Made by a program: the position numbers and the translations under genes. The notes under the pieces were generated by a model. That model made no database searches and was not told where the DNA came from. It was given only the letters and a program-made list of their open reading frames with translations. 64,000 nucleotides of DNA from Callorhinchus milii (taxonomy: Eukaryota), in contig NW_024704742.1 of NCBI RefSeq assembly GCF_018977255.1, positions 16,370,001-16,434,000 of the forward strand, given 5' to 3'. Positions 4,130 through 4,685 of this stretch are shown here, one piece after another (the first letter of the stretch is position 1; each line of letters opens with the position of its first letter).

Positions 4130-4257
4130 AAAATACTGCAAATGCTGAAAATCTGAAACAAAAACAGAAGTCGCTGGGAACACTCAACAGGTCAGGCAGC
4201 ATCTATGGAGAAAGGAAAGTGAGTCAACGTTTTGGGTCTACGACCTTTCATCAGAAC
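4130..4257 (-). mobile_element. Penelope-like terminal repeat with degenerate minimal hammerhead motif (left arm)
   Basis: Minus strand: ttCTGATGAaaggtcgtagacccAAAACGTTgactc...ctccatagatgctgcctgacctg...cagattttcagcatttgcag. It is an inverted copy of 4577-4685. Confidence 0.65.
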
Positions 4258-4323
4258 ATGATCCTTCATCCGACCCTTCATCAGAAGGGTCGTGTTCTGA
4301 CCAATTTCTCCGGGTGTCCCAGC

Positions 4324-4576
4324 TCATTGGCACTGTTCAATGTACGTGGAAATGTCGATTTCGTAAGGCAGCTCAGCCACGTTCACCTCGAAGTGATCCT
4401 ACATATCGTTCAGCACCTTGGCATTCATTTCGTCCGAGACAAAAGTGATGGCCACCGGCTCGAGGAACCCGATGCAAGTATGTGTCAAAATCTTCAGGCA
4501 TGTTGTAGTTGAACACAGTGTTCACTCATTTAATATCCAAATCTCGCCCAAACAAGTTTGTGGCCACCAGGATACG
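4324..4576 (-). pseudogene. DDX39A: Processed pseudogene fragment of the DEAD-box helicase DDX39A (UAP56/URH49 family), C-terminus
   Basis: Minus translation [40 protein letters not shown] / ~20-nt deletion removing RFGTKGL / [41 protein letters not shown]. This matches the DDX39A end (NVAELPEEIDISTYIEQSR). Two internal stops, one frameshift, no introns. Confidence 0.92.
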
Positions 4577-4685
4577 TCAGAAGGGTCGTGTTGTGACGAA
4601 GGGTTATGGACCCAAAACGTTGACTCATTTTCCTTTCTCCATAGATACTGCCTGACCTGCTGAGTTTTCCCAGTGATTTCTATTT
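4577..4685 (+). mobile_element. Penelope-like terminal repeat with degenerate minimal hammerhead motif (right arm)
   Basis: ttGTGACGAagggttatggacccAAAACGTTgactc...ctccatagatactgcctgacctgctgag, the inverted counterpart of the left arm. Confidence 0.65.

Follow-up and report, generated by a model that had tools for sequence, protein, structure and literature searches.

A fragment of spliced DDX39-type mRNA between inverted copies of a probable Penelope-like element in Callorhinchus milii

We analysed a 64,000-nucleotide (nt) stretch of Callorhinchus milii DNA (assembly GCF_018977255.1, contig NW_024704742.1, positions 16,370,001 to 16,434,000 of the forward strand), hereafter the window, near the left end of which two inverted arms enclose a fragment of a messenger RNA for a DDX39-type DEAD-box helicase. 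The arms, which an initial annotation made from the letters alone had already pointed out, are confirmed by BLAST as 106-nt inverted repeats (4162-4267 and 4580-4685) that are 86% complementary and lie 312 nt apart. No further copy of either arm, or of the stretch between them, occurs in the 64-kb window. The arms appear to belong to a Penelope-like element (PLE), and the enclosed helicase fragment is called the cargo below; the parts of the composite are listed in Table 1.

Table 1 Parts of the arm-cargo-arm composite in the window, from left to right; a dot marks features without strand.
Feature	Position	Strand	Remarks
Left copy of the target-site duplication of the whole composite, AATACCAGAT	4109..4118	.	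9/10 identical to 4686-4695
Left arm, probable 3'-terminal ~139 nt of the Penelope-like element, long form	4119..4257	-	88-95% identity to family copies over 4117/4123-4257/4258
Decayed minimal hammerhead motif of the left arm	4223..4257	-	CUGAUGA box kept; CAAAAC (family CGAAAC), i.e. G12 replaced; 10.1 G to A
Two partial re-copies of the element's 5'-terminal motif (its last 13-16 nt)	4258..4270, 4271..4286	- (left-arm polarity)	Direct repeat 4241-4256 / 4271-4286; like loci L007 and L020
21-nt direct repeat, copy 1, element sequence, spanning the left/right polarity join (shared GAA 4284-4286)	4281..4301	.	
Cargo, internal fragment of a spliced DDX39-type mRNA, pseudogene	4302..4576	-	Alignment to the exons of the parent gene
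21-nt direct repeat, copy 2, continuous with the right arm	4577..4597	.	
Right arm, same probable 3'-terminal unit, short tail-less form, inner (5') end complete	4590..4685	+	90-95% identity to family copies over 4589/4590-4685
Decayed minimal hammerhead motif of the right arm	4590..4624	+	GUGACGA, i.e. C3 lost; CAAAAC, i.e. G12 lost
Right copy of the target-site duplication of the whole composite, AATACCGGAT	4686..4695	.	9/10 identical to 4109-4118

The cargo aligns end to end with the three joined last exons of a gene on contig C29 of the same assembly. It is made up of 108 nt of one exon, 128 nt of the next (148 nt minus a 20-nt deletion) and 39 nt of the last, which includes the stop codon and about 22 nt beyond it. 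Both parental introns, one of 388 bp (after ...LHR; HR/VAR) and one of 617 bp (inside the Ile codon after ...STY; STY/IEQ), are exactly missing, with the exons joined at 4469/4468 and 4341/4340, and this precise absence marks the cargo as a retrocopy of spliced mRNA. The introns at LHR/VAR and near Y-I/EQ that the initial annotation gave for mammalian DDX39 genes hold in this genome's own parent gene, and its description of 253 nt of intron-less coding sequence followed by 22 nt without poly(A) agrees with the exon alignment, in which the stop codon occupies 4326-4324. Read from 4576 to 4302, the frame is that of a broken DEAD-box helicase C-terminus, with an in-frame TGA (4528-4526), a TAG (4401-4399) and a frame-shifting deletion, the 20-nt one, at 4455/4454; the cargo is a dead copy, a pseudogene.

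A DNA search of the 991-Mb assembly with the cargo, which the initial annotation had proposed as the way to a parent gene and to its exon junctions, gave three matches, namely the window itself and two exons of the C29 gene (87% and 84% identity), and so located the gene whose two junctions the cargo spans. A protein search with the middle exon likewise left two matches of seven candidates, the C29 gene and the window copy. By these searches the C29 gene is the only DDX39-type gene detected in the assembly, and neither the DNA nor the protein search found a donor pseudogene elsewhere in it. The more specific name given initially, DDX39A, stands as far as the type is concerned: the middle exon scores equally against solved DDX39A (E 9.6e-25) and DDX39B (E 3.5e-24), the two are not separable by it, and DDX39-type is therefore as far as the name can go.

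The ends of the cargo bear on how it was made. On its 5' side it starts mid-exon, and on its 3' side it stops in a GA-rich stretch about 11-22 nt past the stop codon. In the parental 3' untranslated region (UTR), the first AATAAA lies 194 nt past the stop, making this UTR at least 194 nt long and leaving the cargo at least about 170 nt short of that signal. Neither end carries an A- or T-run, the mRNA-3' side at 4302 included, and the cargo contains neither a 3' tail sequence of a long interspersed nuclear element (LINE) nor PLE 3' sequence. Because it begins mid-exon, ends soon after the stop and has no A-run, the cargo is an internal piece of a mature mRNA and not a poly(A)-primed copy. These properties speak against an ordinary LINE processed pseudogene that landed in a pre-existing palindromic repeat, with the 21-nt repeat as its target-site duplication (TSD). 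Such an origin would suit an intron-less, 5'-truncated copy with a flanking direct repeat; a LINE product should however end at the poly(A) site with an A-tail and be framed by a TSD of target DNA, and the cargo has neither, in line with the missing LINE hallmarks that had been noted initially. We regard a LINE origin as improbable.

To place the arms, the genome was searched with the right arm, which returned at least 1706 first-look candidates; the 40 that were scored gave 57 matches at 80-95% identity, and the family was defined on the alignment of 29 fetched loci. Its unit is ~103 or ~139 nt long, starts in the sense direction with GTTCTGAYGA and has a T-rich end. Longer copies (L017, L019, L024 and 19 further loci) extend upstream for ~500 nt, unbroken, to the tail of an open reading frame (ORF) that ends in LGTLQPSGLNIDFNNFRP before its stop codon. 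This ORF tail has 1359 first-look candidates in the genome, and longer open frames that include it are found at L070, L071 and L073. The L070 tail (L070:1150-1725:-) and four ray proteins align in the pattern VVYC.RC..C..LYIGE...R...EH, a GIY-YIG block with cysteines between GIY and YIG, an arrangement described as characteristic of PLE endonucleases (Craig et al. 2021, PMC8557442). Upstream of the block, a reverse transcriptase (RT) YIDD box is present in three of the four ray relatives. Pfam matches to GIY-YIG are consistent but weak, none reaching the curated cut-off (E 4.6e-4 to 0.016), Pfam gave nothing useful on the ORFs of the degraded long copy L068, and no intact full-length copy was found among the six regions fetched. 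The arms are probably the 3'-terminal 100-140 nt of an abundant Penelope-like element, with ORF support that is good but not formal; their Penelope-like nature, suggested initially, is borne out by the GIY-YIG ORF of the longer copies, the minimal hammerhead and the insertion layout described below. A ray protein annotated as 'mucin-2 isoform X2' (P0003) is a relative of the ORF tail (E 1.4e-34) and has a GIY-YIG match; its name is probably an annotation error that stems from low-complexity PLE-derived sequence.

The first ~35 nt of the family unit have the layout of the minimal hammerhead of PLEs (PMC4209133), of which the right arm of L028, starting at base 1598, is an example. A CUGAYGA box is followed by a single additional base and then by helix II, whose 5 bp are closed by a G10.1-C11.1 pair; next come GAAA and, where helix III would stand, a palindromic ACGU. 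Among 79 family arms, CUGANGA is kept in 44, GAAAC in 30 and the whole pattern in 8, and the motif is decayed in most copies. Neither window arm has an intact hammerhead core (C3, G5, G8, G12, A13, A14). G12 is essential for hammerhead activity. In one PLE hammerhead, the C3G mutation is reported to abolish cleavage (PMC11167929). From their letters, neither window arm should be able to act as a ribozyme; the description 'hammerhead-bearing' suits the family but not these two arms, whose cores are mutated. Rfam hammerhead models gave no match in the window at the gathering threshold or at E<=10, and none in L028 at E<=10, as expected because the motifs have no helix III and fall outside the curated models; what Rfam returned in the window were tRNA-like heads of short interspersed nuclear elements (SINEs) and spurious hairpin matches. 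The RNA fold of 4119-4685 is a long hairpin (-252.8 kcal/mol, z -17), which is due to the inverted repeat and is no evidence of function.

The 5' end of the unit recurs in other settings. Eight of the 11 single units (L005, L008, L013, L016, L018, L023, L029 and L032) begin exactly at the first base of helix I (GTTCTGA), where they adjoin unrelated flank and a TSD. In the longer copies L006, L010, L014, L017, L019 and L024, a polypyrimidine stretch ending in CCCCAG and resembling a 3' splice site stands just before GTTCTGA, and in Penelope of D. virilis the 5' end of helix I reportedly coincides with the end of an intron (PMC4209133). Splicing was considered as the source of the recurrent GTTCTGA end, and no matching donor could be placed.

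The arrangement of the two arms is shared with other loci of the family. Of the 29 arm loci, 11 are single-arm and the remaining 18 carry a pair, which in all 18 is head-to-head, with the 5' ends facing each other as in the window; counting loci from the long-copy queries, with three duplicate loci dropped, there are 27 head-to-head pairs in all. Two classes of outer end are seen, offset by about 35 nt, a long one reaching query positions 129-142 and a short one reaching 94-108. One long and one short end are combined in 15/18 pairs, two pairs have a long end with a shorter-than-usual one, one pair has no long end, and two long ends occur in none (0/18). The window pair follows the common pattern, with a left arm that carries a ~35-nt tail (about 4119-4156) at its outer end and is complete at its inner (5') end, and a short right arm. 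Other arrangements occur at larger distance (tail-to-tail in L038 and L061, direct in L043, mixed in L037); at the window locus there is no tandem (direct) arrangement of arms. An optional one-sided tail of 30-40 bp has been reported for PLEs (Craig et al. 2021, PMC8557442; Arkhipova et al. 2013, PMC3846280), and purified PLE protein cleaves and extends both DNA strands, with the tail traced to two internal start sites of reverse transcription (Frangieh et al. 2024, PMC11167929). Two loci, L025 (contig C43) and L033 (contig C1), carry one and the same dimer, agreeing in coordinates and identities throughout all comparisons, and are probably a duplicated region or an unmerged haplotig.

TSDs of 9-13 nt surround the whole dimers L007, L019 and L020, and the single units L018 and L023 have TSDs likewise. 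At the window locus, one 10-nt TSD bounds the complete arm-cargo-arm unit, which is a single insertion block; in 27 of 2000 shuffles of the two 36-nt flanks, a 10-mer match of at least 9/10 was reached. One TSD around the whole unit would also fit a cargo-carrying non-autonomous element in which arm, cargo and arm move together, as had been proposed initially, and PLE terminal repeats are reported to mobilise unrelated sequence between them in a rotifer (PMC3846280). The genome search does not support this proposal: besides the parent gene, the cargo occurs once in 991 Mb, as opposed to the multiple copies that define Pack-type elements. The head-to-head layout with one tail is that of a primary insertion, and the arms are inverted here, whereas direct pseudo-long terminal repeats (pLTRs) frame the mobilised rotifer genes. 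Movement as a unit is very improbable.

The centre of the composite is more complex than two arms meeting. In plus-strand view, the left arm stops at 4257 with a complete element 5' end, and is followed by the two partial re-copies of the terminal motif, the first of which (4258-4270) deviates from it at CpG-type positions. Polarity then flips to that of the right arm at the GAA of 4284-4286, the sequence continuing as gaagggtcgt and then gttctgac up to 4301, where the cargo is reached; after the cargo, tcagaagggtcgt gttgtgac recurs and runs on into the right arm. The resulting direct repeat matches at 22/24 positions between 4281-4304 and 4577-4600, and at 20/21 over its 21-nt core. This core consists of the unit's first 8 nt after a 13-nt re-copy, including 3 nt (tca) of the left-polarity side, and reads as element sequence, not as genomic target DNA. 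The initial annotation was right about the presence of this repeat, which is however no bracket of target DNA; the actual TSD lies at the outer ends of the composite (Table 1). Being the element's own 5'-terminal motif, the 21-nt repeat fits a secondary insertion as well as it fits repeated template jumps.

Comparable events are seen at other dimer junctions. In L007 and L020 the unit end is followed by acgacccttc..., and the last 10-18 nt of the unit are copied again from the same base (acgaccc...) in L007 (1586-1609), in L020 (1598-1610) and in the window (4258-4293 and 4577-4589), which suggests that the template is re-entered at a stereotyped point or that the 5' end was already duplicated in the source RNAs. 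Fillers of 4-9 nt occupy the junctions of L011, L015, L026, L027 and L031, and longer ones those of L017 (45 nt, at 598-642, between a 5'-truncated inverted arm and a longer PLE copy) and L039 (34 nt, partly a re-copy). In contigs of a relative, dimer joints have 2-39 unaligned letters among the 12 joints listed (218 more exist). The dimer junction is evidently a place where synthesis hops between templates.

Contigs of sequencing runs support the composite. A 421-letter contig of public run X1 covers 4216-4636 with no differences and crosses both cargo junctions; the composite is not a simple assembly artefact, yet the assembled individual may itself be the source of X1. This run is one of four of organism A, obtained from four samples within a single study, in which 74-85% of sampled words of 4090-4720 are present. 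In a related organism, B, two segments of one contig of run X5 (594 letters) match the flanks, one at 3950-4081 with 16 differences and 2 gaps and the other at 4686-4850 with 21 differences; just 14 letters separate them. Organism B thus has the empty site, in which about one TSD copy joins the flanks and the whole arm-cargo-arm unit is lacking. This answers the question, raised initially, of what the orthologous site holds in a relative: the unit is absent as a whole, and no ortholog with a pre-existing palindrome was seen. On this comparison, the insertion took place on the organism A lineage. In organisms C and D (X6, X14) no contig spans the site; X6 contig 24 ends 8 letters past 4123, which would fit an empty site and proves nothing. 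Close to the target but outside the insertion, organism C has an indel, a gap of 13 letters at 4076 on the left side of the insertion site; read from the placement tables alone, a similar gap in organism B would explain the short remainder of 4082-4108.

The ages of the parts were compared by their divergence. Against the majority of the 79 family arms, the left arm differs at 3/98 and the right arm at 7/89 non-CpG sites, and the two arms differ from each other at 10/89 such sites. The cargo differs from its parent at 37/261 positions overall, at 17/208 non-CpG positions and at 9/134 (6.7%) of codon positions 1 and 2, where a conserved parent should be unchanged. The flanks of organisms A and B differ at 37/297 positions (87.5% identity), and this divergence of 12.5% corresponds to about 6% per lineage. 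Arms and cargo belong to the same age class, close to the full length of the branch since the split from organism B, and these similar ages exclude a much younger cargo.

In the reading that we favour, with a probability of roughly 55%, the composite stems from one PLE insertion primed from both strands, during which the RT jumped onto a DDX39 mRNA at the junction and then back. The GIY-YIG endonuclease would have cut both target strands, giving rise to the 10-nt duplication, and from each 3' end a short RNA of the PLE 3' end would have been reverse-transcribed, with the ~35-nt tail included at one start and missing at the other. The two cDNAs would then have extended towards each other up to the 5' end of the RNA, where several short template jumps of the RT would have left the partial re-copies of the 5'-terminal motif. 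One further jump would have led onto a broken, spliced DDX39 mRNA, of which 275 nt were copied with the plus strand in cDNA polarity, continuous with the left-arm cDNA, before synthesis returned to the other cDNA and the gap was sealed. Capture within the same event and this order of jumps are inferences. The whole block bears the PLE signature, the cargo is an internal mRNA fragment without a tail, and arms and cargo are equal in age; the junction is messy, with several jumps, the cargo has no feature for independent priming and no donor pseudogene was found. All of this supports a single event. As in chimeras made by template switching, the parts are fused in one cDNA polarity, with one TSD around them all. 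The polarity of the cargo taken by itself was also considered as evidence and rejected, since a symmetric dimer fits either orientation.

Several observations weigh against a single event. The cargo sits 15 nt inside sequence of right-arm polarity, off the polarity join at 4284-4286, and one-step capture requires one more jump, in which a template end is left and then regained. A 21-nt repeat flanking the cargo is most simply explained by a second event, in which a dimer already in place received a staggered cut. By eye, no microhomology with the parent sequence was found at the junctions of either cargo end. None of the 27 other head-to-head pairs contains recognisable foreign mRNA, and a genome search with the 45-nt filler of L017, allowing up to 3 mismatches, matched the filler itself alone, with no second copy. 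The empty site cannot order arms and cargo because organism B has neither, and the errors of the dating are wide (about +/-3%), such that two events close in time are not separable.

These points leave a tentative place for two events, in which the PLE dimer was formed first and a DDX39 cDNA fragment was captured later, 15 nt from the centre of the palindrome, duplicating 21 nt. Capture could then have come about by a second endonuclease and RT event, in which PLE protein possibly attacked its own element's sequence, or when a staggered break in the palindrome, a fragile structure, was repaired. The 21-nt repeat directly flanks the cargo and spans the already-joined left/right junction, and with the cargo and one repeat copy taken away, the centre resembles that of L007 and L020, family dimers in which motifs are likewise re-copied. 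Nicking by PLE ribonucleoprotein is reported both for its own pLTR and for other DNA (PMC11167929), and the absence of mRNA from the 27 other pairs points the same way. Against two events, 21 nt exceeds the 9-13-nt duplications of the family, and the cargo has no poly(A), PLE 3' sequence or LINE tail that could have primed an independent insertion. Nor is the cargo measurably younger than the arms, both being about as old as the branch since the organism B split, and a random insertion within ~20 nt of the dimer centre is improbable a priori (an estimate, not a computed value). We consider this two-step history possible, and clearly less likely than a single PLE insertion with a template jump. 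The initial proposal, that a PLE RT switched template onto spliced mRNA, remains the most likely reading, while the 21-nt repeat that had been part of it equally fits a secondary insertion.

The composite shares most of its features with canonical PLE insertions, which are described as having a pLTR with a minimal hammerhead, an adjacent inverted 5'-truncated copy, a one-sided tail of 30-40 bp and a short TSD (PMC8557442, PMC3846280, PMC11167929). It has the head-to-head copies, the palindromic and re-copied junction, the one-sided tail and the 10-nt TSD, together with the terminal hammerhead motif and, upstream in longer copies of the family, the GIY-YIG ORF. It departs from them in that both window copies are extremely 5'-truncated (the last 96-139 nt, from the first base of helix I) and in the foreign spliced-mRNA fragment between them. 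In Adineta vaga (PMC3846280), host-sequence capture by PLEs likewise places non-element sequence inside PLE terminal repeats within one TSD, with the empty site confirmed against a second sequence; the captured host genes are framed by direct pLTRs with their introns retained, and would have been copied within a pLTR-framed transcript. The window cargo, by contrast, is a 275-nt internal mRNA fragment without the two introns and lies at an inverted junction. The loss of introns and the position at an inverted junction point to template switching onto a mature mRNA.

Other retrocopies offer partial parallels. The U6-L1 type chimeras of mammals are LINE template-jump chimeras. Tripartite chimeras of LINE origin have also been reported in Magnaporthe (PMC2104539). 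The window composite resembles such chimeras in that cDNAs copied from different RNAs adjoin one another directly in the same polarity and share a single surrounding TSD, and differs from them in its PLE enzyme, in having no poly(A) end and in placing the chimera between two inverted copies made by two-strand priming. With L1-type processed pseudogenes the cargo shares that it is an intron-less, 5'-truncated and decayed copy of a housekeeping mRNA; unlike them it has no poly(A), lacks most of the 3' UTR and is flanked by a repeat of element sequence. Vertebrate non-LTR retrozymes and dispersed minimal-hammerhead repeats have been described (Cervera & de la Pena 2014, PMC4209133; Li et al. 2026, bioRxiv 10.64898/2026.07.22.740005), among them dual minimal-hammerhead motifs on opposite strands 100-700 bp apart (PMC4209133). 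As in those accounts, short non-autonomous hammerhead-motif repeats derived from PLE terminal regions number in the thousands; unlike retrozymes, the units here are not tandem monomers delimited by cleavage sites and run from helix I to the PLE 3' end. No spliced-mRNA fragment at a PLE inverted junction is described in the titles or abstract openings of the papers that the literature searches listed. Rotifer PLE capture of intron-containing genes and LINE chimeras with mRNA were known before; the window composite adds a PLE insertion with a spliced-mRNA cargo of template-switch type.

PLEs are the least understood class of retrotransposons, and their odd inverted or tandem insertions and tails were tied to a mechanism in vitro just in 2024. 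The locus is a natural footprint in which a tail on one side, two full 5' ends meeting, re-copied motifs, a spliced mRNA and an empty site come together, and it gives a concrete picture of how two cDNAs are joined. It suggests that the PLE RT can template-switch onto host mRNA in vivo. The product itself is a dead single-copy relic with no indication of function. Whether the junctions of two-sided target-primed PLE insertions form a general trap for cellular RNAs, with the RT copying pieces of mature mRNAs, is a wider proposition that we hold to be doubtful. If true, it would provide a poly(A)-independent, non-LINE route to partial gene retrocopies in PLE-rich, L1-poor vertebrates, which standard retrocopy screens (relying on poly(A) and TSD) would miss, with undercounts in fishes, amphibians and reptiles; the locus would then be the first footprint of such a route to be documented, and would back up in vivo the priming from both strands that was observed in vitro in 2024.

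Two further repeat types were observed around these loci. About 200 nt to the right of the composite lies an abundant repeat (~4880-5100, with an inverted partner at 5363-5383) that has an AT-rich microsatellite head and a conserved body of ~150 nt. The same microsatellite-headed repeat is found just downstream of the parental DDX39-type gene (L002, minus strand) and beside other PLE copies (L017, ~1640-1700). Elsewhere in the window there are six tRNA-like matches of 30-52 bits, four on the plus strand (19196-19268, 27641-27703, 37738-37809 and 46740-46811) and two on the minus strand (60307-60369 and 62252-62322); several are clipped at the 5' or 3' end and near-identical to one another, and they are most likely the heads of a tRNA-derived SINE family rather than tRNA genes.

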